A stretch of 64,000 bases of DNA. Origin: an uncultured Candidatus Rokubacteria bacterium. GTDB lineage: Bacteria; Methylomirabilota; Methylomirabilia; Rokubacteriales; DASRDR01. Both the position numbers and the translations under genes were made by a program. The stretch spans positions 96,001-160,000 of the forward strand of contig CAWDVE010000004.1 in assembly GCA_963805625.1 (NCBI GenBank), read 5' to 3'. Of the stretch, positions 36,758 through 50,521 are shown one piece after another (the first letter of the stretch is position 1; each line of letters opens with the position of its first letter). The notes below the pieces were generated by a model. It had not been told where the DNA came from. It searched no databases and was given only the letters and a program-made list of their open reading frames with translations.

Positions 36758-36932
36758 CCGTCCCGCCCGTTCGCCTTCGGTCTTCATGATGCGCGACGGG
36801 ATCGGCCGGGCGACCGGCCTGTCGCTGGCGGACCGGGAGCCGCTCGGCCGGCTCCCCGAGCCCTACCCGTCGTTCTTCTGAGCGGAGGGTGAGGAATTGG
36901 AGGCCGGCACGGACGGCCCGATAATGGGAGCC

Positions 36933-39900
36933 ATGGACAGTGTGACCACGATGCCACGCTCCCCCGACCGTCTCGATCTGAGCCTCGACGACCGCTACCT
37001 CCGGGACGAGGGGGCGGTCTACCTCTCCGGCATGCAGGCCCTCGTGCGCCTGGCGATCGACCAGAGTCGGCGCGACCGCCGGGCGGACCTCCGGATCGGG
37101 ACGTTCATCAGCGGCTATCCCGGCTCGCCCCTCGGGGGCTACGACCTTGCCCTGCGCCAGGCGCGCCGGATCCTGACCGAGCACGACATCCGCCACGTGC
37201 CGGGCGCGAACGAGGAGCTCGCCGCGACGGCGCTCTCGGGCACCCAGATGCTCGACCGCTACCCGCACTCCCGCTACGACGGGGTCGTGGGCCTCTGGTA
37301 CGGGAAGGGCCCCGGCGTCGACCGGAGCGGAGACGCTCTCAAGCACGGCAACTTCGCGGGAACCAGCCGGCACGGCGCCGTCGTGGTGCTCTCCGGTGAC
37401 GACCACGAGGCGAAGAGCTCGACCATGCCCTACCAGGACGACTACGCCTTCGTGGGGCACGGCATGCCCATCCTCTACCCGGCCTCGACGGGGGAGTTCC
37501 TCACACTCGGGCTCCACGCGATCGCGCTCTCGCGCTTCTCGGGCTGCTGGGTGGTGATGAAGCTCGTGGGGCAGCTCGCCGACGGCGGCGAGACGGTCCA
37601 CGTGTCGCGCGACGACCCCGGGATCGTGATCCCGGAGCTCCTGATCGACGGCAAGCCCTTCCGGAAGTCGACGGACTTCACGTTCTTTCCCGGGCTGAAC
37701 ATCGAGACGGAGCGCCAGCTCTACTACGAGCGCCACCGGGCCGTGCTGGCCTACGCGCGGGCGAACAGCCTCACCTGGGCCGAGATCGGCGCTCGCGGGG
37801 ACCGCGTGGGCCTGGTGACGGCGGGCAAGTCGTACGCCGATCTCCGTCAGGCCCTCCTCGACCTCGGTCTCGACGAGGCCGCGCTGCGGCGCCTCGGAGT
37901 GCGCCTGCTGAGAGTAGGGCTCATTTACCCGCTCGACGCCGACGCGATGCGCGCTTTTGCGCGGGACCTCGACGAGATCGTGGTGGTCGAGGAGAAGCGC
38001 GGCTTCCTCGAGGGGCAGGTGAAGGAAGCCCTCGCCGGGTTTCCGCGGGGTGTCCGGGTCCTCGGCAAGACAGACGAGACCGGAGCGCCGCTGTTCCCGA
38101 TCCAGGGAGGCATGGACTCCGACGTGGTGGCGGAGCGGCTGGCACCCCGGCTGCTCCGCCTCGCCGAGAGCCAGCCAGACCTGACGGGGCGGATCCGGAG
38201 CCGGCTCGATGCGATCCGGGCGATTCGCGCGCGGCCGCACGAGGCGCACCCGGGCCGGACACCGAACTACTGCTCCGGGTGCCCCCACAACGTCGGCACG
38301 CGGCTTCTGCCGGGCGAGGTGGCGTGGGGTAGCCCCGGGTGCCATTCGTTCGCCTCGATCATCGAGCAGCCCGAGCGGCACATCGTCTCGATGACGCAGC
38401 TCGGTGGCGAGGGGCTGCCGTGGATCGGGCTCGCGCCGTACACCGACCGGCCGCACATCGTGCAGAACGTCGGCGACGGCTCGCTGTTCCACTCGTCGTA
38501 CCTGAACATCCGGTTCTGCGTGGCGGCCGGGGCCAACATCACGTTCAAGATTCTTTACAATGGGTTCGTGGCGAACACAGGTGCCCAAGAGATGGTCGGC
38601 GGGAAGCCCGTGCCCGAGCTGACGCGGATGCTCGAGCTGGAGGGCGTGCGGACGACGGTGGTCCTGACCAAGGATCCCGACGCGTATCGCGGCGTCGAGC
38701 TCGCGGGCAACGCGCGCGTGGAGGTCATCGAGCGACAGGACGCGGTGCTCCAGGAGCTCGCCGCCACGCGGGGCGTCACCGTGCTGATCCACGATGGAAT
38801 CTGCGCCAACGAGCGCCGGCGCCGGCAGAAGCGCGGGCAGCTTCCGGCGTCGAACCGCTTCGTCGTGATCAACGAGGAGGTCTGCGAGGGTTGCGGGCAC
38901 TGCGGGGCGCTGACGAACTGCATGTCGCTCCACCGGGTCGAGACGGAGCTCGGGCCGAAGACCCAGATCCACGCGTCCTCCTGTAACCAGGATCTCTCCT
39001 GTCTCGGCGGGGACTGTCCCTCGTTCGTGACGGTCGAGACGGCGCCCGGGACGGGCTACCGGAAGCCCGCGGCCCCCGTCCTCCCGGCCGACGCCGTCCC
39101 GGAGCCGTCCGACCGCGTCGGGCTCGAGCGGCCCTACCACGTCTACCTCCCCGGGGTCGGGGGGACGGGCGTCATCACGCTGAATGCGCTGCTCAGCTGG
39201 GCGGCGCTGCTCGACGGTCTGCACGTCCTGAGCTACGACCAGACCGGGGCGGCCCAGAAGTGGGGCCCCGTCCTGTCGAGCCTGATCCTCGCCCGGCCGG
39301 AGCACGTGGCGGCCGCGAACAAGGTCGGGCTCGGTCAGGCCGACCTCTACCTGGCGCTCGACCTCCTGGCGGCCGGGACCCGCGTCAACCTCGACCGCTG
39401 CGACCCGGTGCGCACGGTGGCCGTCGTGAACGCGTCGATCCTGCCGAGCGGCGAGATGGTGCGCAACGTGGACTTCACGCCGCCCGTCGACGCGATCCGC
39501 GGCCAGATCGACCGTTTCACGCGGGCCGCCGCCAACGTCGCCGTTGACGCGCGGCGGCTGTCCGAGGGCCTGTTCGACGACTACATGGCGACCAACATGC
39601 TCGTGCTGGGCGTGGCCTACCAGGCCGGGCTCCTGCCGCTCACGGGGGCGGCCGTTGAGCAGGCCGTCCGCCTGAACGGCGTCGCCGTGGACCAGAACCT
39701 CCAGGCCTTCCGCTACGGCCGTCTCTGGGCGGCTGATCCGGACCGGGTCCGTGCGCTCGTCGAGCCTCCGGCGCGGTCATTCGAGTCCGAGCGGGCGGCG
39801 GCGCTCGAGCGGCTCGGCGGGCGCGACGCGAGCGCGTACGTGTCGCTGCTCGACCGCTCTGCGCATCTCGACCCAGCGGCGCGCCGGCTGCTGGCGCTCC

Positions 39901-40490
39901 GCGTCGGCGAGCTGATCGACTACCAGGACGCCCGCTACGCGGCCGCGTACGTGGACTTCGTCCTCGACGTGGCCGCCCGCGAGGCGGCGCGTGCACCCAG
40001 GCGGCACGACGTCACCCACGCCGTGATCCGGAACCTCTACAAGCTCATGGCCTACAAGGACGAGTACGAGGTGGCGCGCCTCCACCTCAAGCCCGCGTTC
40101 GATGCCGGGACGCGCGGGCTCTTCGCCGCGCCGCGCCGGCTCTCCTGGCATTTCCATCCGCCGCTCCTGCGCGCGCTCGGTCTCAAGCGGAAGCTCCGGC
40201 TCGGGCCCTGGTTCCGCTACGTGCTCCGGGCCCTCCGGGCCCTCCGGCGGCTCCGGGGGACGCCGTACGATCCCTTCGGGTACGCGGCGGTGCGGCGGGA
40301 GGAGCGGCGCCTCGTGCCATGGTACCGAGGGCTCGTGGTGAAGGCGCTCGACGCCCCCGGCCCCGACGCGCACGCGGCCGCGATCGAGCTGGCGCGCCTG
40401 CCCGAGTCGATCCGCGGCTACGAGGACATCAAGCTCCGTAGCATCGCCCGCGCCCGCGAGCGGGCAGAACAGCTCGGGGTCAGACTTTGA
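36933..40490 (+). CDS. ior: Indolepyruvate ferredoxin oxidoreductase family protein (fused alpha/beta)
   Basis: FISGYPGSPLGG, NEELAATA, WYGKGPGVDR, YCSGCPHN, VCEGCGHC, GVGGTGV, LMAYKDEYEVARL, IRGYEDIK; last codons GVRL* lie inside the repeat arm. Confidence 0.93.
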   Translation: MDSVTTMPRSPDRLDLSLDDRYLRDEGAVYLSGMQALVRLAIDQSRRDRRADLRIGTFISGYPGSPLGGYDLALRQARRILTEHDIRHVPGANEELAATALSGTQMLDRYPHSRYDGVVGLWYGKGPGVDRSGDALKHGNFAGTSRHGAVVVLSGDDHEAKSSTMPYQDDYAFVGHGMPILYPASTGEFLTLGLHAIALSRFSGCWVVMKLVGQLADGGETVHVSRDDPGIVIPELLIDGKPFRKSTDFTFFPGLNIETERQLYYERHRAVLAYARANSLTWAEIGARGDRVGLVTAGKSYADLRQALLDLGLDEAALRRLGVRLLRVGLIYPLDADAMRAFARDLDEIVVVEEKRGFLEGQVKEALAGFPRGVRVLGKTDETGAPLFPIQGGMDSDVVAERLAPRLLRLAESQPDLTGRIRSRLDAIRAIRARPHEAHPGRTPNYCSGCPHNVGTRLLPGEVAWGSPGCHSFASIIEQPERHIVSMTQLGGEGLPWIGLAPYTDRPHIVQNVGDGSLFHSSYLNIRFCVAAGANITFKILYNGFVANTGAQEMVGGKPVPELTRMLELEGVRTTVVLTKDPDAYRGVELAGNARVEVIERQDAVLQELAATRGVTVLIHDGICANERRRRQKRGQLPASNRFVVINEEVCEGCGHCGALTNCMSLHRVETELGPKTQIHASSCNQDLSCLGGDCPSFVTVETAPGTGYRKPAAPVLPADAVPEPSDRVGLERPYHVYLPGVGGTGVITLNALLSWAALLDGLHVLSYDQTGAAQKWGPVLSSLILARPEHVAAANKVGLGQADLYLALDLLAAGTRVNLDRCDPVRTVAVVNASILPSGEMVRNVDFTPPVDAIRGQIDRFTRAAANVAVDARRLSEGLFDDYMATNMLVLGVAYQAGLLPLTGAAVEQAVRLNGVAVDQNLQAFRYGRLWAADPDRVRALVEPPARSFESERAAALERLGGRDASAYVSLLDRSAHLDPAARRLLALRVGELIDYQDARYAAAYVDFVLDVAAREAARAPRRHDVTHAVIRNLYKLMAYKDEYEVARLHLKPAFDAGTRGLFAAPRRLSWHFHPPLLRALGLKRKLRLGPWFRYVLRALRALRRLRGTPYDPFGYAAVRREERRLVPWYRGLVVKALDAPGPDAHAAAIELARLPESIRGYEDIKLRSIARARERAEQLGVRL

Positions 40491-40895
40491 CTTCTAGACA
40501 CTTGCCGAGGCACTCGGCCGACCAGGCGAGCTTCTCGTCGCGCGCCGGGCGGCGGGTGAGGCGTCCCACCGTCACGCTCAGGCTAGCGGGGTCGCGGCCG
40601 AGGGCCCGGGGGTGTGGCTCCAGTCCGGAGGAGCAGGTGGACGTGGTTCGGCATGAGGCAGTATGCGTGAACGTCAACCTCGTACCGTTCTCGATACAGC
40701 GCCAATCGGTGGAGATAGGCATCGTAGTCGGCTTTGCTGAGGAACGTCGGCTGGCGCTGGTTCCCGCGGGCGATGACGTGATAGAGGAGGCCGGGCGCAA
40801 AGAGCCTGGAGCGGCGAGCCATGCCTAAGAAGCACGGGGCGTGCCGGTCTGGTCCACGGGCTGCTGGCCATGTTTGGAAGTCAAAGTCTAACCCC
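40476..40895 (-). mobile_element. Inverted-repeat-bounded element carrying an internally deleted HUH/Y1 (RAYT-like) transposase
   Basis: Arm A GGGGTCAGACTTTGACTTCTAGACACTT (40476-40503) and inverted arm B CATGTTTGGAAGTCAAAGTCTAACCCC (40869-40895) enclose the transposase remnant. Confidence 0.85.
40480..40822 (-). pseudogene. Y1 (IS200-like/RAYT) transposase remnant: N-terminal HUH part joined out of frame to a C-terminal HTH-like tail
   Basis: MARRSRLFAPGLLYHVIARGNQRQPTF...HAYCLMPNHVHLLLRTGATP, then at about 40610 a second frame RALGRDPASLSVTVGRLTRR...KCLEVKV*; the catalytic Tyr region is missing. Confidence 0.88.
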
Positions 40896-41001
40896 GGTCG
40901 GGGGTGACCGGGGCGAAGAGCCGAGGACGTCGAGCCATCGCCCTCGACCAGAGGCCCGGGACGGGTGCGAGAGCACCCGTCGGGACTGGGACGAGGGTGA
41001 G

Positions 41002-41030
41002 GAAAATGTCGGGAAGTCAAAGTCTGTCCC
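41002..41030 (-). repeat. Third (unpaired) repeat arm C
   Basis: GAAAATGTCGGGAAGTCAAAGTCTGTCCC, reverse complement of the family consensus with few mismatches. Confidence 0.9.
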
Positions 41031-41034
41031 TGGT

Positions 41035-41063
41035 TTGACACTCTGCGTCGAGGGAAGTAGCAT
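41035..41063 (+). promoter_or_regulatory. Near-consensus sigma70 promoter of the TCA operon
   Basis: TTGACA-N17-TAGCAT upstream of aconitase. Confidence 0.7.
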
Positions 41064-41129
41064 GAGGGCGCGGTCGAGAGCGCCTCCTGTCCGGCTGGGC
41101 GGGAGGCGATTACTTTGGGGAGCCCTGCC

Positions 41130-43373
41130 ATGATTGACGCGATTCGCGCCCTCTACGCCTCGATGCCGGAGCGTCTCACCCGGGCCCGCCGCGACTGGAA
41201 CCGCCCCCTCACGTTGAGCGAGAAGATCCTGGTCGCCCACGTCCACGACTGGAATGCCCAGGCCTGGGAGCGGGGCACGGCCACCCTCCGGCTTCGCGTC
41301 GACCGCGTGGCGATGCAGGACGCAACCGGCCAGATGGCACTGCTCCAGTTCATGCAGGCCGACAAGGCCCGGGTCGCCGTTCCCTCGACGGTCCACTGCG
41401 ACCACCTGATCCGCGCGCAGACGGGCGCGTCGGAGGACATGCGCCGGGCGGTGACCGAGAACAACGAGGTCTACGAGTTTCTCCACTCGGCCTCGAAGAA
41501 GTACGGGATCGGCTTCTGGAAGCCGGGCTCGGGGATCATCCACCAGGTGGTCCTGGAGAACTACGCGTTCCCGGGCGGCCTCATGATCGGCGCCGACTCC
41601 CACACCCCGAACGGGGGCGGTCTCGGCATGCTGGCCATCGGCGTCGGGGGAGTTGACTGCGGCGAGGTCATGGCCGGGCTGCCGTGGGAGGTGCTCCACC
41701 CGAAGCTCGTGGGCGTGCATCTCACGGGGAGGCTGTCCGGATGGACGTCGCCCAAGGACGTGATCACGTACCTCTGCGGGTTCCTTACGGTCAAGGGCGG
41801 CACCAACAAGATCGTCGAGTACTTCGGCCCCGGGGCCGCGTCGATCAGCGCGACCGGCAAGGGCACCATCTGCAACATGGGGGCGGAGCTGGGCGCCACC
41901 ACCTCCGTGTTCCCCTTTGATGAGCGGATGGCCGCGTACCTCGAGGCGACGGAGCGGCGCGACGTCGCGCGGCTCGCTGCCCAGAACCACGCGCACCTCG
42001 TCCCCGACCCGGAGGTCCTCCGGAACCCCAAGGACTTCTACGACGAGATCGTCGAGATCGACCTTTCCACGCTCGAGCCCCACATCGTGGGCCCGCACTC
42101 GCCGGATCGGGACCGGCCGGTCTCGAAGCTTGCCGCCGACGTCCGCGCGAACGGCTGGCCGGCCGGCATCAAGGCGGCGCTCATCGGGTCGTGCACCAAC
42201 TCGTCGTACGAGGACATGCGGCGTGCCGCCCACATCGCGATGCAGGGCATCAAGGCGGGGCTCCGGGCGCGGACGCCGTTCCTAATCACGCCCGGCTCCG
42301 AGCGCATTCACCAGACGATCAAGCGCGACGGGATCATGGCCACGTTCGAGCAGATGGGCGGCACGGTGCTCGCCAACGCGTGCGGGCCGTGCATCGGCCA
42401 GTGGAAGCGGTCCGACGTCGGCAAGGACGAGGCGAACACCATCGTCTCGTCGTTCAACCGGAACTTTCCGGGGCGGAACGACGGCAGCCAGGCGACGCTG
42501 TCCTTTCTCAGCAGCCCGGAGATCGTGACCGCCCTCGCCTTTGCGGGCACCCTCGAGTTCGATCCGGTCCACGGGACCCTGACGGCGCCTGACGGGAAGG
42601 CGTTCCGCTTCACGCCGCCCGAGGGCGAGGAGCTACCGCGGGACGGCTTCGCGCGCGGCGAGGAGGGCTACGAGGCGCCCGCCGCGGACGGCGCCGCAGT
42701 CCAGGTCGTCGTGCGGCCGGACAGCGAGCGGCTCCAGCTGCTCCGGCCCTTCCCGCGCTGGGACGGGAAGGACTTCGACCGCCTGCCGATCCTCGTCAAG
42801 ACCAAGGGCAAGACGACGACCGACCACATCTCGCCGGCGGGAGCGTGGCTGCGCTACCGCGGCCACCTCGACAAGATCAGCGACAACATGTTCATCGGCG
42901 CGCTCAACGGGTTCACCGGGGAGACCGGCAAGGGCGTCAACGTGCTGACCAGCGAGGCCGGGGTGCCGCTCACGCGGATCGCGCGCGACTGGAAGGCCAG
43001 GGGCGTGAGCTGGATCGTGGTCGGCGACGAGAACTACGGGGAGGGGTCGAGCCGGGAGCACGCGGCCATGTCCCCCCGCTACCTCGGCGCGAAGATGGTC
43101 CTCGTCAAGAGCTTCGCGCGCATCCACGAGACGAATCTGAAGAAGCAGGGGATCCTGCCCCTGACGTTCGCGAGCCCCAAGGACTACGACCTGTTCGAGC
43201 AGGCGGACAGGGTGAGCGTGGTCGGCCTCCAGGCCCTGGCGCCGGGCCGGCCGGTCGAGGTTCGCATCCGCAAGCCGGATGGCCGTACCATCACGATCCA
43301 GGCCCGCCACAGCCTGACCGAGGAGCACATCGGCTGGTTTCGCGCCGGGTCGGCGCTGAACGCGCTCTCGTAG
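41130..43373 (+). CDS. acnA: Aconitate hydratase (mitochondrial-like type)
   Basis: DRVAMQDATGQ, HCDHLI, GADSHTPNGGG, IGSCTNSSYED, ANACGPCIG, TTDHISPAG, NYGEGSSREHAA. Confidence 0.96.
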   Translation: MIDAIRALYASMPERLTRARRDWNRPLTLSEKILVAHVHDWNAQAWERGTATLRLRVDRVAMQDATGQMALLQFMQADKARVAVPSTVHCDHLIRAQTGASEDMRRAVTENNEVYEFLHSASKKYGIGFWKPGSGIIHQVVLENYAFPGGLMIGADSHTPNGGGLGMLAIGVGGVDCGEVMAGLPWEVLHPKLVGVHLTGRLSGWTSPKDVITYLCGFLTVKGGTNKIVEYFGPGAASISATGKGTICNMGAELGATTSVFPFDERMAAYLEATERRDVARLAAQNHAHLVPDPEVLRNPKDFYDEIVEIDLSTLEPHIVGPHSPDRDRPVSKLAADVRANGWPAGIKAALIGSCTNSSYEDMRRAAHIAMQGIKAGLRARTPFLITPGSERIHQTIKRDGIMATFEQMGGTVLANACGPCIGQWKRSDVGKDEANTIVSSFNRNFPGRNDGSQATLSFLSSPEIVTALAFAGTLEFDPVHGTLTAPDGKAFRFTPPEGEELPRDGFARGEEGYEAPAADGAAVQVVVRPDSERLQLLRPFPRWDGKDFDRLPILVKTKGKTTTDHISPAGAWLRYRGHLDKISDNMFIGALNGFTGETGKGVNVLTSEAGVPLTRIARDWKARGVSWIVVGDENYGEGSSREHAAMSPRYLGAKMVLVKSFARIHETNLKKQGILPLTFASPKDYDLFEQADRVSVVGLQALAPGRPVEVRIRKPDGRTITIQARHSLTEEHIGWFRAGSALNALS

Positions 43374-43452
43374 GCTCGTCCGGGCGACGCCCACCGCGGC
43401 TCGATCGGAGAACCGGATGGTGCGGGCGGCGCCCGTGCCCTGAGGAGGCAGC

Positions 43453-44706
43453 ATGCCAGGTCGCGTGAGAATCCCCACCGGCGAGAAGATCGCCCTCTCC
43501 CACGGAAAGCTGCAGGTTCCCGACCACCCGGTCGTGCCCTTCATCGAGGGTGACGGTACGGGCCCCGACATTTGGCGCGCCTCCGTGCGGGTGCTGGACG
43601 CCGCCGTCGAGCAGGCCTACGGCGGTAAGCGCCGGATCGCCTGGGCCGAGGTGTACGCGGGCGAGAAGGCGCACGCGGTCTACGGCGCGGACTGCCCGCC
43701 GAACCTCCTGCCGTCCGAGACCCTGGACGTGATCCGGGAGTACCTGGTCGCGATCAAGGGGCCGCTCACGACCCCGGTCGGCGAGGGCTTCCGGAGTCTC
43801 AACGTCACGCTCCGCCAGGAGCTCGACCTCTACGTCTGCCTTCGCCCGGTGAAGTACTTCCGGGGCGTGCCGTCGCCGGTCAAGCGGCCGGAATCGGTGG
43901 ACATGGTGATCTTCCGCGAGAACACGGAGGACATCTACGTCGGCGTCGAGTGGCTCACGGGGACGCCCGAGTGCCAGAGGGTCGTCGACTTCCTGACGCG
44001 CGACATGGGCGTGAAGAAGATCCGGTTCCCCAAGACCTCGTCGATCGGGATCAAGCCGGTGTCGATCGAGGGATCGGAGCGGCTCATCCGGGCGGCGATC
44101 CGGTACGCGATCGAGCATAACCGCCGGAACGTGACCCTCGTCCACAAGGGGAACATCCAGAAGTTCACCGAAGGGATGTTCATGAAGTGGGGCTACGGGC
44201 TCGCCAAGCGCGAGTTTCCCGACCGGACCGTGTCCTGGGAGGAGTGCGGCGGGAAGCCGCCGGCGGGCAAGCTCCTGATCAAGGACGCGATCACGGACGC
44301 CTTCCTCCAGCAGATCCTCACGCGGCCCGACGAGTTCGACGTCATCGCGGCGCCCAATCTCACGGGCGACCTCCTGTCGGATGCACTCGCGGCCCAGGTG
44401 GGCGGGATCGGGATCGCGCCGGGCGGGAACATCAACTACGAGACGGGCCACGCCCTCTTCGAGGCGACGCACGGGACCGCGCCGAAGTACGCGGGCCAGG
44501 ACAAGGTGAACCCGGGCTCCGTGATCCTCTCGGGTGAGATGATGCTCCGTTACATGGGCTGGGCCGACGCGGCCGACCGGATCGTCAAGGGCCTGGAGGC
44601 GACGATCGCCCAGAAGGTGGTGACCTACGACTTCGCCCGCCTGATGGACGGGGCGAGGGAGGTCAAGTGCTCCGAGTTCGCCACCGCCATCGTGGAGAAC
44701 ATGCGC

Positions 44707-44721
<15 letters not shown>
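43453..44721 (+). CDS. icd: Isocitrate dehydrogenase (NADP-type dimeric family)
   Basis: [51 protein letters not shown]. Confidence 0.96.
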
Positions 44722-45786
<1,065 letters not shown>

Positions 45787-45797
45787 GAGGGCACGCG

Positions 45798-46643
45798 GTG
45801 GCGGCACCGGGTCATCAGGCGCATGCGACGGGCACGGGAATCACGGCGACCCGCCTCCCGGCGGCGAACGGGCGGATCCGTGTCGAGGGCCCGATCCGCT
45901 GGGACACGTGGTGGGTCGAGCCGGCCCTGATCGTGCTGGTGCTGGGCGCCTTCATCGTCTACTCGACGTGGGCGGCGCTCCAGAACGCCCACTACTACGC
46001 GGCGCCGTACCTCTCGCCCTTCTATTCGCCGTGCCTCTCGACCGACTGCCAGCACGTCACCGTGCCCCTGTTCGGCAAGATGCCGGCGCTCCCGATCCTG
46101 GGGGTCGTCTCACCCGCCTTCCTGATCCTCTGGGCCCCGGGGCTGTTCCGGCTGACCTGCTACTACTACCGCAAGGCCTACTACCGGTCGTTCTGGGCCG
46201 CGCCGCCGGCGTGCGCGGTAAGCGACATCCGCCCGACCTACACGGGGGAGACGCGCTTCCCGCTGATCTTCCAGAACCTCCACCGCTATGCGTTCTACTT
46301 GGCGGTGCTCTTCATCGTGGTCCTGGCCTACGATGCGCTCCTGGCATTCCGGTTCCCGGGCGGGCGAGTCGGGGTCGGTGTGGGGACGCTCGTGATGTGT
46401 CTCAACGTGATCTTGCTCGCTGGCTACACGTTCTCGTGCCACAGCTGTCGTCATCTCTGCGGCGGATCGGTCAACCAGTTCTCGAAGGCGCCGAGCCGCT
46501 ACGCCCTGTGGAAGGTCGTCACCCGCCTGAACGAGCGGCACCCGACCTTCGCGTGGCTTTCGCTGTTCGCCGTCGGACTGACCGACCTCTACATCCGGCT
46601 GGTGTCGATGGGGGTCATCCGGGACCTCCGCATCGTCTTCTGA
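45798..46643 (+). CDS. sdhC: Succinate dehydrogenase membrane anchor, Sdh1 (Rv0249c-like) type
   Basis: YLSPFYSPC, FRLTCYYYRKAYYRSFW, YTGETRFPL, CHSCRHLCGG; GGAGG RBS; precedes sdhAB. Confidence 0.85.
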   Translation: MAAPGHQAHATGTGITATRLPAANGRIRVEGPIRWDTWWVEPALIVLVLGAFIVYSTWAALQNAHYYAAPYLSPFYSPCLSTDCQHVTVPLFGKMPALPILGVVSPAFLILWAPGLFRLTCYYYRKAYYRSFWAAPPACAVSDIRPTYTGETRFPLIFQNLHRYAFYLAVLFIVVLAYDALLAFRFPGGRVGVGVGTLVMCLNVILLAGYTFSCHSCRHLCGGSVNQFSKAPSRYALWKVVTRLNERHPTFAWLSLFAVGLTDLYIRLVSMGVIRDLRIVF

Positions 46644-46668
46644 CCAGGGGACGGGGCAGGGAGCGCGT

Positions 46669-48474
46669 ATGAGCGGGCTGGAGCAGCACGAGGTCCACGA
46701 GTACGACGTCGTCGTGATCGGCGCGGGCGGGGCCGGCCTCCGGGCGGCGATCGAGGCGGTCGCCCAGGGCGCGCGGACGGCCATCATCTGCAAGTCGCTC
46801 CTCGGCAAGGCGCACACGGTCATGGCCGAGGGGGGAATCGCCGCCGCGCTCCGGAACGTGTACCCCGAGGACAGCTGGGAAGTCCATTTCCGCGACACCA
46901 TGCGCGGCGGGAAGATGCTCAACAACTGGCGCATGGCGCAGCTCCACGCCCAGGAGTCGCCGGATCGGGTCCTCGAGCTCGAGCGCTGGGGCGCGCTGTT
47001 CGACCGGACCAAGGACGGGCGCATCCTCCAGCGGGACTTCGGCGGCCACCGCTACGCGCGGCTGGCCCACGTCGGGGACCGGACCGGGCTCGAGATGATC
47101 CGGACGCTCCAGCAGCACGCCGTCCACCTGGGCATCGACGTCTTCATGGAGTGCACCGTCAACCGGCTCCTCAAGGACGGCGACCGGGTGGCCGGCGCGG
47201 TCGCCTACTGGCGCCAGAGCGGGAAATTCGTCGTGTTCAAGGCGCCGGCGGTCGTGCTTGCCACCGGCGGGATCGGCAAGTCGTACGCGATCACGTCGAA
47301 CTCCTGGGAGTACACGGGCGACGGCCACGCGATGGCGCTCCGCGCCGGCGCGGATCTCATCGACATGGAATGCGTCCAGTTCCACCCGACTGGAATGGTC
47401 TGGCCCCCCAGCGTGCGCGGCCTCCTCGTGACGGAAGGCGTGCGGGGCGACGGCGGGACGCTCCGGAACAGCAAGGGCGAACGGTTCATGTTCCGCTACA
47501 TCCCAGATTTCTTCAAGGCGGAGACGGCGGACAACGAGGCCGAGGCCGACCGGTGGTACGAGGACAAGAAGAACCGCCGGACGCCGGACCTCCTGCCGCG
47601 GGATGAGGTCGCCCGGGCGATCAACGCCGAGGTCAAGGGCGGCCGCGGCAGCCCCCACGGCGGCGTGTTCCTGGACATCGCCACGCGCCGCTCGCCCGAC
47701 TACATCCGGCGCCGCCTGCCCTCCATGTACCACCAGTTCAAGGAGCTGGCGGGTGTCGACATCACCAAGGATCCGATGGAGGTCGGTCCGACCTGTCACT
47801 ACGTGATGGGCGGCGTCCGGGTGGATGCCGACACGACCGCGGCCATCGGGCTGGCCGGGCTCTTCGCCGCTGGCGAGGTGGCGGGCGGCATGCATGGCTC
47901 GAACCGCCTGGGCGGCAACTCGCTCTCGGACCTCCTCGTGTTCGGCCGCCGTGCCGGACACTACGCGGCCGAGCACGCCCGCGCCTCCAAGGGGACGCTG
48001 GCCATCGACGCGCGTCAGGTCCAGGCGGCCGTCCAGGAGGTCATGGCGCCGGTCGAGCGCAAGACCGGCGAGAACCCGTACGAGATCCAGAGGGACCTCC
48101 AGCAGCTCATGCACACCCTGGTCGGCATCATCCGGACCGAGTCGGAGCTGAAGGAGGCCCTCGTCCAGATCGGCCGCCTCGAGGAACGGGCCGCCCGGGT
48201 GCGCGTCGAGGGCAGCCTCACCTACAACCCGGGCTGGCACCTGGCCCTCGACCTCCAGAACCTTCTCGCGGTCTCCGGCGCGATTGCCCTGGCGGCGCTC
48301 GAGCGGAAGGAGAGCCGGGGCGGCCACACCCGCGACGACTACCCGAAGCCGGATCCGAAGCTCGCCAAGGTCAATATCGTGGTGCGGATGAAGGACGGGG
48401 AACTCAGCGTGACCCCGGAGCCGCTGCCGGCGATGCCGCCGGAGCTGCAGAAGCTCTTCGAGGAGAAGAAATGA
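46669..48474 (+). CDS. sdhA: Succinate dehydrogenase/fumarate reductase flavoprotein
   Basis: GAGGAGLRAA, KAHTVMAEGG (covalent-FAD His), QFHPTG, TEGVRGDGG, HGSNRLGGNSL, ESRGGH. Confidence 0.96.
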   Translation: MSGLEQHEVHEYDVVVIGAGGAGLRAAIEAVAQGARTAIICKSLLGKAHTVMAEGGIAAALRNVYPEDSWEVHFRDTMRGGKMLNNWRMAQLHAQESPDRVLELERWGALFDRTKDGRILQRDFGGHRYARLAHVGDRTGLEMIRTLQQHAVHLGIDVFMECTVNRLLKDGDRVAGAVAYWRQSGKFVVFKAPAVVLATGGIGKSYAITSNSWEYTGDGHAMALRAGADLIDMECVQFHPTGMVWPPSVRGLLVTEGVRGDGGTLRNSKGERFMFRYIPDFFKAETADNEAEADRWYEDKKNRRTPDLLPRDEVARAINAEVKGGRGSPHGGVFLDIATRRSPDYIRRRLPSMYHQFKELAGVDITKDPMEVGPTCHYVMGGVRVDADTTAAIGLAGLFAAGEVAGGMHGSNRLGGNSLSDLLVFGRRAGHYAAEHARASKGTLAIDARQVQAAVQEVMAPVERKTGENPYEIQRDLQQLMHTLVGIIRTESELKEALVQIGRLEERAARVRVEGSLTYNPGWHLALDLQNLLAVSGAIALAALERKESRGGHTRDDYPKPDPKLAKVNIVVRMKDGELSVTPEPLPAMPPELQKLFEEKK

Positions 48475-49244
48475 AGCGCCAGACGGTCGCCAGCGGGTCG
48501 ACGCGCGAGGTCACGATGCACGTCTTCCGCGGCGACGCGGAGGGCGGAGAGTTCCGCGAGTACCGGGTGCCCCTCGAGGAGGGGATGGTCGTCCTGGACG
48601 TCGTCCACCGGATCCAGGGAAGCCAGGCGAACGACCTCGCGGTCCGCTGGAACTGCAAGGCCGGCAAGTGCGGGTCGTGCAGCGCCGAGGTCAACGGGAA
48701 GCCGCGGCTCATGTGCATGACCCGGATGGAGATCTTTCCCGCGGGCGAGCCCATCACCGTGGCGCCGCTCAAGACGTTCCCCCTGGTCAAAGACCTGGTC
48801 ACCGACGTGTCGTTCAACTACGAGGCGGCGAAGCAGATCCCGGCGTTCCGGCCCCGGCCGCCGGAGCCCGACGGCACCTATCGGATGATGCAGGAAGACA
48901 TCGACCGCGGGCAGGAGTTCCGGAAGTGCATCGAGTGCTTTCTCTGCCAGGACGTCTGTCACGTGATCCGGGACCATGAGGAGAACAAGCCGGGGTTCTT
49001 CGGGCCCCGCTTCTTCGTGCGGCTGGCTGAGCTGGACATGCACCCGCTCGACACCCAGGACCGCCGCGAGCTCGTCCGGGCGCGCGCGGGCATCGGCTTC
49101 TGCAACATCACGAAGTGCTGCACCGAGGTCTGTCCCGAGCACATCAAGATCACGGACAATGCGATCATCCCGCTGAAGGAGCGCGTGGTCGACGACCACT
49201 ACGATCCCGTCATGTGGGTGGTCCGGAAGCTGGGCGGGAAGTAG
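48471..49244 (+). CDS. sdhB: Succinate dehydrogenase/fumarate reductase Fe-S subunit
   Basis: CKAGKCGSC..LMC; CIECFLCQDVC; CNITKCCTEVC. Confidence 0.96.
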   Translation: MKRQTVASGSTREVTMHVFRGDAEGGEFREYRVPLEEGMVVLDVVHRIQGSQANDLAVRWNCKAGKCGSCSAEVNGKPRLMCMTRMEIFPAGEPITVAPLKTFPLVKDLVTDVSFNYEAAKQIPAFRPRPPEPDGTYRMMQEDIDRGQEFRKCIECFLCQDVCHVIRDHEENKPGFFGPRFFVRLAELDMHPLDTQDRRELVRARAGIGFCNITKCCTEVCPEHIKITDNAIIPLKERVVDDHYDPVMWVVRKLGGK

Positions 49245-49282
49245 AGACCTGACCTCGCGGGTCATCGAGCTGCGGCGCCCCC

Positions 49283-50452
49283 ATGAAGATCCACGAGTAC
49301 CAGGCAAAGGCGATCCTGCGGGAGTTCGGCGTCCCCGTGCCCCGGGGCGAGGTCGCGACCACGCCGGCCGAGGCCCGCGCGATTGCCGAACGCCTGGGCG
49401 GCCGCGTCGTGGTGAAGGCCCAGGTCCACGCGGGCGGGCGAGGGAAGGCCGGCGGGGTGAAGCTGGCCGACGACCCGGCCGGGACCGAGGCGGCCGCCCG
49501 GCAGATCCTCGGGATGCGGCTCAAGACGCCCCAGACGCCGCCCGAGGGCATCACGGTCCTGACGATCCTGGTCGAGGAGGCCTCCGCGATCGTCCAGGAG
49601 CTCTACCTGGCGGTCACGCTGGACCGAGGCCGCGGGGCACACGTCGTCATGGCGAGCCAGGCCGGCGGCATGGAGATCGAGGAAGTGGCGGCCGCGCACC
49701 CCGAGCGGATCGTGCGGGAGTGGGCCGATCCAGCGCTCGGGCTCCAGGCGTTCCAGGCCCGCGCGCTCGCCTTCGGTCTCGGCCTCTCGGGCGACCAGTT
49801 CAAGGCCGGCGTCGGGCTGATCCAGGCGCTCTTCCGCGCCTACCTCGCCAAGGACTGCTCCCTGGCCGAGGTCAACCCGCTGGTGGTGACGCGTGACGGC
49901 CGGGTGCTCGCCCTCGACGCCAAGCTCAACTTCGACGACAGCGCGCTCTTCCGGCACCCCGAGGTGATGGCGCTCCGCGACATCAACGAGGAAGACCCGC
50001 TGGACGTCGAGGCGTCGAAGCACGGGCTCAACTACATCAAGCTCGACGGCACGGTGGGCTGCATGGTCAACGGTGCCGGCCTCGCCATGGCGACGATGGA
50101 CATCGTCAAGCTGGCGGGAGGAGAGCCGGCGAACTTCCTCGACGTGGGCGGCGGAGCGTCCCCCGAGCAGATAGAGAGCGCCTTCCGGATCCTCTCGTCC
50201 GATCCGAGCGTCAGAGCCGTCTTCATCAACGTGTTCGGCGGGATCCTCCGCTGCGACCGGCTGGCCGCGGGGCTGATCGCGGCGGTGCAGAAGCTCGACG
50301 TCCGGATGCCCATCGTCGTCCGGATGGAGGGCACGAACGTGGAGCTCGGCCGCAAGATGCTGGCCGAGTCGGGGCTCAACTTCACGAGCGCGGCCGACAT
50401 GGGCGTTGGCGCGGCCAAGGTCGTCGAGCTCGCCCGCGGGGTCAGACTTTGA
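49283..50452 (+). CDS. sucC: Succinyl-CoA synthetase beta subunit
   Basis: MKIHEYQAK, VKAQVHAGGRGKAGGV, EVNPL, GCMVNGAGLAMATMD, ANFLDVGGG. Confidence 0.97.
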   Translation: MKIHEYQAKAILREFGVPVPRGEVATTPAEARAIAERLGGRVVVKAQVHAGGRGKAGGVKLADDPAGTEAAARQILGMRLKTPQTPPEGITVLTILVEEASAIVQELYLAVTLDRGRGAHVVMASQAGGMEIEEVAAAHPERIVREWADPALGLQAFQARALAFGLGLSGDQFKAGVGLIQALFRAYLAKDCSLAEVNPLVVTRDGRVLALDAKLNFDDSALFRHPEVMALRDINEEDPLDVEASKHGLNYIKLDGTVGCMVNGAGLAMATMDIVKLAGGEPANFLDVGGGASPEQIESAFRILSSDPSVRAVFINVFGGILRCDRLAAGLIAAVQKLDVRMPIVVRMEGTNVELGRKMLAESGLNFTSAADMGVGAAKVVELARGVRL

Positions 50453-50521
50453 CTTCCCAACATTTCGTGATCGCTGCGGGCCATGGGGAATCGAAGTGTA
50501 CGGAAGTCAAAGTCTGACCCC
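50438..50521. mobile_element. Non-autonomous inverted-repeat element, 84 bp, between sucC and sucD
   Basis: GGGGTCAGACTTTGACTTCCCAACATTTC (50438-50466), 26-bp spacer, GAAGTGTACGGAAGTCAAAGTCTGACCCC (50493-50521). Confidence 0.88.

Follow-up and report, generated by a model that had tools for sequence, protein, structure and literature searches.

The stretch of DNA analysed here (the window; 64,000 nt, G000:C4:96001-160000, from a source genome, G000, of 7.27 Mb and 69% GC) holds, between a gene of the indolepyruvate oxidoreductase (IOR) family and the aconitase gene, what is almost certainly the remnant of a TIRtron, that is, a transposase gene (tnpA, encoding a TIRYT protein) bounded by terminal inverted repeats (TIRs), which we call arms A, B and C. 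A minus-strand open reading frame (40822-40583; 79 aa) contains YHVIARGN and YCLMPNHVHLL and matches Pfam Y1_Tnp over positions 5-59 of 121 (E 7.9e-08), while the tnpA tail lies in a different frame, reads PRALGRDPASLSVTVGRL...CLEVKV* and has its stop within arm A. The remnant retains 343 of 933 nt, the ~590 nt lost including the catalytic Tyr and the YIHLNP motif, and a second tnpA 5′ end (MARRPRLFAP, 40938-40909) sits between arms C and B. A family search returned the remnant as the sole PF01797 match in G000, and together with tblastn it found no intact second copy of tnpA elsewhere in that genome. The three arms, the HUH N-terminus, the out-of-frame tail, two hairpins and the loss of the middle of the gene with its catalytic Tyr had all been correctly placed by an initial annotation made from the letters of the window.

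Allowing up to 3 mismatches, the 19-mer core of the arms occurs 76 times in G000 and once in a codon-block-shuffled genome. That the arms lack the palindrome and the GTAG start of repetitive extragenic palindromes (REPs), as first described, is borne out, since a single arm carries only a weak GTCA-N5-TGAC dyad and folds no better than shuffles (z -1.2 and -0.4). Neither hairpin is conserved: the one at 40892-40913 (z -3.0) was created by the nested junction, and the one at 40960-40981 (z -5.4) is not palindromic in the closest allele, that of the congener G010. Their candidacy as IS200-type subterminal ends was rejected on that ground. Public contigs from two studies span the deletion junction (X1, 40533-40695, 0 differences, possibly from the source sample; X13, 40579-40729, 1 difference), and one from a third study (X2, 40789-40951) spans the nested junction. 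Short repeats or a hairpin foot mark both deletions at the locus. The host setting (36897-50521) is a core metabolic cluster with an IOR-family oxidoreductase, aconitase, isocitrate and malate dehydrogenases and succinyl-CoA ligase beta, and only 0.06-0.13 of words were present in RNA runs.

Table 1. Features of the remnant TIRtron and of two dispersed arm pairs (window coordinates)
Feature	Position	Strand	Remarks
Arm A, right terminal inverted repeat	40476..40503	+	Core 40476-40494, 0 mismatches to 19-mer
tnpA stop in arm A	40480-40482	-	Same stop overlap in congeners
Stop of upstream IOR-family gene in arm A	40488-40490		
Out-of-frame tnpA 3′ tail: end of DnaA-domain-IV-like helix-turn-helix (HTH) plus CLEVKV*	40480..40611	-	Domain identity from intact homologues
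Deletion junction in G/C run	40609..40613		~590 nt, roughly residues 72-267 including catalytic Tyr, lost
tnpA 5′ part, second allele (MARRSRLFAPG...NHVHLL)	40612..40822	-	Closest G001 (82.5%), G003 (80.0%)
Predicted sigma-54-type -24/-12 motif GGC[AT]-N7-TGC	40832..40845	-	23 nt before ATG
Arm B, second allele's left repeat (CCAAACA variant)	40869..40895	-	Core 40877-40895, 1 mismatch to 19-mer
12-nt filler, nested junction	40896..40907	-	With neighbours forms hairpin 40892-40913; bridged in run X2
First 10 codons (MARRPRLFAP) of older tnpA allele	40909..40938	-	
Older allele's leader, without sigma-54-like motif	40939..41004	-	Shorter than that of G010; holds hairpin 40960-40981
Arm C, orthologous left repeat (CCCGACA variant)	41005..41031	-	Core 41013-41031, 2 mismatches; adjoins TTGACA box that precedes aconitase; position shared with 9 congener loci
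Dispersed doublet between idh and mdh	44707..44844		Left arm provides idh stop
Dispersed doublet after sucC	50438..50521		Left arm provides sucC stop; ATG follows right arm

Intact relatives occupy one site in the genus

With the 67-aa N-terminus as query, matches were found in 12 of 41 genomes, including 8 of the 14 congeners (G001-G014). Each of the nine congener loci has an arm at either end and sits between aconitase and the IOR-family gene; seven are intact (291-323 aa) and two frameshifted, and the two locus copies of G005 each have their own flanks. The arms start with GGGGTCAG on both sides at all nine loci and in G000, and the right arm in congeners overlaps the last codons and the stop of tnpA. 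Because the same arms surround intact homologues, the association of gene and arms put forward in the initial annotation stands. It extends beyond the genus: of 588 confirmed distant loci the best 80 were considered, and inverted repeats scoring at least 14 (none in shuffles) flank 60 of them, 34 of the 60 fitting GGGGWSAS. Downstream of a Verrucomicrobia homologue (L193) lies a copy, in inverted orientation, of roughly 100 bp from that homologue's left end with the gene start.

There is no element between the host genes of G004 and G011, which lie near each other, and none before aconitase in G007, G009 and G013; the site of G012 was not found. A TIRYT profile search of G004, G009, G011, G012 and G013 yielded DnaA-sized proteins only, hit by the C-terminal part of the profile. 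Arms number 0 in G007, 0 in G011 and 1 in G004, and 14-44 in G009, G012 and G013.

The intact homologues carry NHVH and Y[IV]H[LQ]NP (YVHQNP in three alleles of the arm type B defined below) and mostly YSG, not SS, when aligned against the published motif table. They exceed the cut-off of the NCBIfam model REP_Tyr_transpos (NF047646) and fall far below that of the IS200 model, while C-terminal Bac_DnaA_C/HTH matches in Pfam are below cut-off (E 6e-4 to 0.013). The predicted structure of the G003 protein (predicted local distance difference test 78) has TnpA-REP (4ER8) as its top fold match, and its tail corresponds to DnaA domain IV, matching 3PVP and 1J1V with a root-mean-square deviation of 1.7-1.9 Å over 88 columns. 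Residues of the HTH seem by eye to vary with arm type, a pattern confounded by kinship.

All 10 genus alleles (that in the window, L003-L010 and L014) have a sigma-54-like GGC[AT]-N7-TGC 19-28 nt before the tnpA start, weakest in G006; the motif, whose consensus is given in PMC7910581, occurs in 0.4% of random 37-nt windows, and rpoN is present in the genome. It was not found in two same-order homologues. Its spacing would give a leaderless mRNA and hints at regulated expression of tnpA.

Two alleles at one address

Arm C, rather than arm B, is the orthologous left end, because it adjoins the TTGACA box of aconitase as in all congeners. The first description, in which A and B delimit the whole element and C is a third arm, has to be turned around: C is the original left end, and A-B brackets a second allele only. 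Arm C with its leader and 10 codons is 86% identical to the left end of G010, the closest element-bearing relative by flank (aconitase 95.8%). The coding part after arm B is 82.5% identical to G001, 80.0% to G003, 75.7% to G010 and 72.4% to G014, despite an aconitase identity of G001 and G003 to G000 of only 87.5-89%. Across the genus the IOR-aconitase flanks are 82-96% identical.

The tnpA tree (205 nt, 10 rows) divides into alleles with type A arms (AGACTTTG) and type B arms (AGGCCT) with support of 99/97, and three marked clades of the aconitase tree (900 nt, 14 rows) each hold both arm types. An approximately unbiased (AU) test on tnpA rejects the grouping of G000, G010 and G014 (p=2.8e-5), and in G014 the aconitase side is 95% identical up to the arm, with the other allele type inside. 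We consider it likely that alleles have been swapped in place at this home site; in G000 the second allele probably ousted most of its predecessor before 590 nt of it were deleted. The home locus of G014 (L006/L021) offers a second case of nesting, in which the left arm is present three times in tandem and 82 bp of the right end are duplicated.

The home TIRtron as likely source of arms

The home TIRtron is likely the source of the arms found elsewhere in the genome. Variants of the TIRtron of G003 make up 52 of 79 arms in 40 fetched loci (of 95 matches) of that genome and none of the 112 loose matches in G000, and of the 23 informative arm pairs in G003, 19 join a left-type with a right-type arm (p=9e-4; 16 others uninformative). 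All 10 listed arms of G002 (of 39) match its own TIRtron, as do 8 of 11 in G010, one of them being the TIRtron's own arm. The commonest arm classes in G000 are those of arm C (15/58) and arm B (6/58).

A near-identical strain shows the locus in a collapsed form. Public sequences from one study (X3 and X6) and another (X11, with 27 letters on the short side) join 40539 to 40983, leaving 113 bp in which arms A and C enclose 37 nt from the tnpA end and some 20 nt of leader. The proposal that this is an autonomous source element is thus upheld in part, in that the locus is the likely template of arms, but with one fixed site in the genus it does not behave as mobile; likewise, decay to a short form does take place in situ, but the dispersed copies carry spacers that are not tnpA-derived. 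The doublets at 44707 and 50438, first read as plain internal-deletion copies, have spacers that match neither tnpA nor each other, and the arms of the former match arm C, of the older allele, not A or B.

Dispersed doublets and the turnover of their spacers

G000 contains 32 inward-facing arm pairs, or doublets (68-153 bp), and 0 outward-facing ones, plus triples and singles. Singletons found with a loose arm pattern are excluded from the arm count, as that pattern matched 112 times in G000 and 33 times in a shuffle. Doublet hairpins are strong (z -7.5 and -8.5). No target-site duplication above control was found at the 32 doublets, the length being 0 in 22, 1 in 6, 2 in 3 and 4 in 1, equal to a mismatched control. 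Nor is there a target motif beyond the arm, with a pyrimidine at -1 in 52 of 58 cases against ~68% before any GGGGTC and no prominent tetranucleotide, and guide pairing of the IS608 kind was therefore dropped. Spacers in G000 are unique save for two local duplications, the 32 from G000 and 39 from G003 share no family, and their matches to TIRtron interiors are scattered, 12-19 nt long and at chance level. The idea that spacers are captured local host DNA was rejected, as none of 22 orthologous sites lacking arms was similar to the spacer of the relative (lowest p 0.16).

A selection of the arm loci of G003, G009, G010, G013 and G014, 73 in all, was compared with G000; 58 are syntenic there, 27 of them filled, 4 half filled and 27 arm-free. 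At arm-free sites the doublet takes the place of host sequence rather than being added to it, and several such 'empty' sites resemble, by eye, decayed or collapsed doublets. At the 44707 site G013, G010 and G009 hold an unrelated intergenic stretch, and the doublets present in G008 and G014 differ from that of G000 in both arms and spacers; the 50438 site holds a collapsed remnant in G010. When G000 is compared with G010 and G013, its close relatives, 9 of 14 orthologous spacers reach no more than 63% identity; in an arm-free intergenic control 4 of 50 regions fall below 70% (median 0.93; Fisher p=4e-5). Of 46 orthologous arm sides, 26 share the same outer junction; differences at arm positions 20-22, a free codon of the C-terminal CxEVKV in the right arm, occur in 19 of these 26.

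Several features of the arms and their sites were observed alongside. Arms provide host stop codons (GVRL*, GVKL*; window 40488, 44719, 50450) at 13 of 36 stop-facing arms, a count from crude open reading frame calls with no control, and most other stops lie within 15 nt of an arm. The G000 doublets are unevenly spread, all 14 on C10 lying at 0.97-1.85 Mb of 2.2 Mb and none on C16 (599 kb) or C21 (402 kb). Type-B arms (L036, L037, L038, L067-L073) have extra outer flanks, CAAA-N2-4 before the head, as at type-B TIRtron ends; these are complementary to the arm's inner TTTG and often nested in apparent older decayed arms.

Single genes, encoding a carbonic anhydrase, a metallo-beta-lactamase-fold protein and a phage cement-like protein, each lie between two related direct-repeat doublets (G000:C19:678588-679658, C17:688048-689037 and C10:1074044-1074887), and congeners have different genes or one doublet at the C19 site. 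Two further loci, L051 (G014:C8:17077-18296) and L056 (G013:C10:8094-9569), have 1.2 and 1.4 kb between two facing arms, the interior of L051 being a gene for an ABC substrate-binding protein; their G000 counterparts are collapsed or arm-free. These arrangements are suggestive of possible gene capture by doublets, its direction being ambiguous, as the carbonic anhydrase gene is present without arms in G014 and the C17 hydrolase gene occurs widely across the genus.

A model of exchange at the arm head and its rivals

As a whole, these data are best explained by a dead single-copy TIRtron whose alleles were exchanged at a genus-wide site through strand exchange directed to the arm head, a reading to which we assign a probability of about 0.6. 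The GGGGTCAG head is common to both arm types and to many distant homologues, while positions 9-27 vary with the allele. From this invariant head, the variable distal part and the often fixed outer junctions, we infer that the HTH recognizes the distal arm and that strands are exchanged at the head. HUH enzymes cut and rejoin single-stranded DNA through a phosphotyrosine (PMC6006769, PMC8266576). In the proposed mechanism the HTH of an intact enzyme would bind positions 9-27, and the enzyme would nick single-stranded DNA at or near the head, a position deduced from sequence comparison only, and rejoin the strands, so that content between two heads would be exchanged. The same reaction would swap whole tnpA alleles at the home site and renew doublets in place with current left and right arm copies, and would occasionally create a new doublet where a short stretch between genes is replaced; events that damage adjacent genes would be lost. 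As G000 has no intact gene, we expect its doublets to be orphans in decay. Taken by itself, enzyme-driven exchange at the head falls a little short of even odds in our estimate.

Several observations weigh against this model. Arms number 14-44 in G009, G012 and G013, where no TIRYT was detected; variants are mixed in G001, G008 and G014, which weakens tight tracking of the home TIRtron and fits layered turnover; and the origin of the spacers is unexplained by tnpA, mutual or local-host matches. The grouping of G000 with G010 alone is not rejected (p=0.17), the tnpA tree comprises only 205 nt, and the group submitted to the AU test was chosen after the pairwise identities had been seen. As to the doublets, 20 of the 46 arm sides are displaced by 1-13 nt, the control regions (40-250 nt) exceed the spacers (17-96 nt) in length, the selection of relatives' doublets by exact match is biased towards fresh ones, a single G000 site accounts for two of the 14 spacers and three of the 9 divergent ones retain borderline similarity. 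The comparison set consists of genome assemblies with contamination of 1-7% (6.3% for G000), and G005 carries the locus twice. Finally, the literature searched yielded no biochemistry on subclass 2.1 or TIRYT proteins, including TIR binding or cleavage.

A serious rival to enzyme-driven exchange, though in our judgement an unlikely one, is host recombination, with TIRYT only seeding arms at a low rate and homologous recombination in the conserved flanks, arm conversion and hairpin-induced deletion producing the allele swaps and the spacer replacement. The similarity of the flanks across the genus would permit it, part of the IOR 3′ sequence seems to follow the allele type, the doublets form strong hairpins and both deletions lie at short repeats or a hairpin foot. 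However, the boundary of the swap on the aconitase side coincides with the arm in G014, the left/right asymmetry of G003 doublets mirrors the TIRtron and would not be retained under random conversion, and spacers were replaced by unrelated sequence, not merely shortened.

Less probable still is an insertion sequence (IS)-like autonomous element that transposes and decays by internal deletion into copies resembling miniature inverted-repeat transposable elements (MITEs). The collapse to a 113-bp doublet in a near-identical strain, the pairing of left- and right-type arms in doublets, a piece like the right end of the G014 TIRtron at another G014 locus (L054) and a duplication rate of 6.2% for group 1 RAYTs (PMC5581495) all speak for it. 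But the element occupies a single site in all nine congener loci, and the spacers of G000 (32) and G003 (39) share no family, whereas MITE copies would share an interior, and for the dispersed copies this explanation is largely refuted.

That the chimeric structure and the tree conflict are artefacts of metagenome-bin assembly is very improbable: all genomes are assemblies of unknown purity, with the contamination and the doubled G005 locus noted above, but both junctions are spanned by independently assembled contigs, 27-bp arms are too short to mislead most assemblies, and the mismatch of allele types recurs in three flank clades. The weakest alternative, that the arms are ends of a DDE transposon with the Y1 gene as a passenger, is highly unlikely: the GGGG start, which Tn3-like ends also have, and the inverted orientation fit it, but G000 has no PF01526 (Tn3) match in a search that covered Tn3 only, not other DDE families or ISfinder, there is no target duplication, and inverted repeats accompany 60 of 80 distant Y1 homologues, 34 of them with GGGGWSAS.

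Extending the model of exchange at the arm head, we tentatively raise the doubtful prospect that TIRYT is a sigma-54-regulated cassette-exchange enzyme that may swap content between GGGGTCAG heads, such that rival alleles would overwrite each other at a single chromosomal site, newcomers would rewrite doublets with arms of their own and new spacers, and the sites would gain or drop whole genes. If true, a very common but unstudied protein family would conceal a dispersed, single-strand system of diversification akin to integrons. The copy in the window is itself dead and its class already known, but one locus is here seen in intact, nested, deleted and collapsed natural states, and the genus provides a ready test set, with two arm types and matched alleles, a predicted 8-bp cut zone and a free 3-nt lineage marker within the arm.

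Comparison with known systems

The literature searched, which left out most subscription papers and all supplements, held nothing on fixed-site allele swapping, left/right-typed doublets or spacer turnover, and searches addressing the replacement of alleles at RAYT loci, or the arm motif, returned nothing relevant. The class as such has been described: Di Nocera, De Gregorio and Rocco (2013) named the TIRtron, with a GGGGWSAS consensus, TIRs that sometimes overlap the gene end and TIR copies that in some hosts are scattered singly, as dimers or in groups (PMC3733652). The affiliation with Y1 transposases suggested in the initial annotation thus holds, for a class known since that year. Our locus shares with TIRtrons a RAYT-like HUH/Y1 gene (without Tyr in the window copy), long TIRs unrelated to GTAG REPs and dispersed TIR copies; the part of PMC3733652 available to us describes no fixed-site swapping, left/right-typed doublets, spacer turnover or sigma-54-like motif.

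Quentin et al. (2018) equate TIRtrons with TnpA-Y1 subclass 2.1, which is group 1 of Bertels (PMC6006769; PMC5581495). Subclass 2.1 genes occur in ~15% of species (PMC6006769), and group 1 has the highest duplication rate among RAYTs (PMC5581495). Assigned by motifs and domains, our element resembles subclass 2.1.2 in NHVH, FQ, Y[IV]HLNP, the SS motif, a C-terminal Bac_DnaA_C/HTH, absence of REPs and low copy number; the authors of that subclass doubt that the HTH reads repeats, whereas here it appears to covary with arm type. A preprint on the same subclass in picocyanobacteria proposes diversifying recombination, softening the claim, and reports that no inverted repeats were found there (bioRxiv 2020.03.09.984088).

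Like IS200/IS605 elements, the locus has an HUH/Y1 core fold and no target duplication, but its protein is about twice as long, has Y---NP rather than Y---Q and is not multi-copy, and terminal inverted repeats take the place of subterminal hairpins. The MITE of a DDE element would have a target duplication and a common interior, both absent from the doublets. With the REPtron or REPIN-RAYT systems (groups 2 and 3; E. coli TnpA-REP, 4ER8), which include the top fold match, the locus shares an HUH gene present once at a fixed extragenic position and inverted doublets that are scattered and vary in their spacers, but the arms here have neither a GT[AG]G foot nor a self-contained hairpin. RAYT trees have been reported to follow the host (bioRxiv 2021.07.10.451892), whereas here the tnpA phylogeny conflicts with that of the aconitase flank, a departure from the view that RAYTs are inherited with their hosts.

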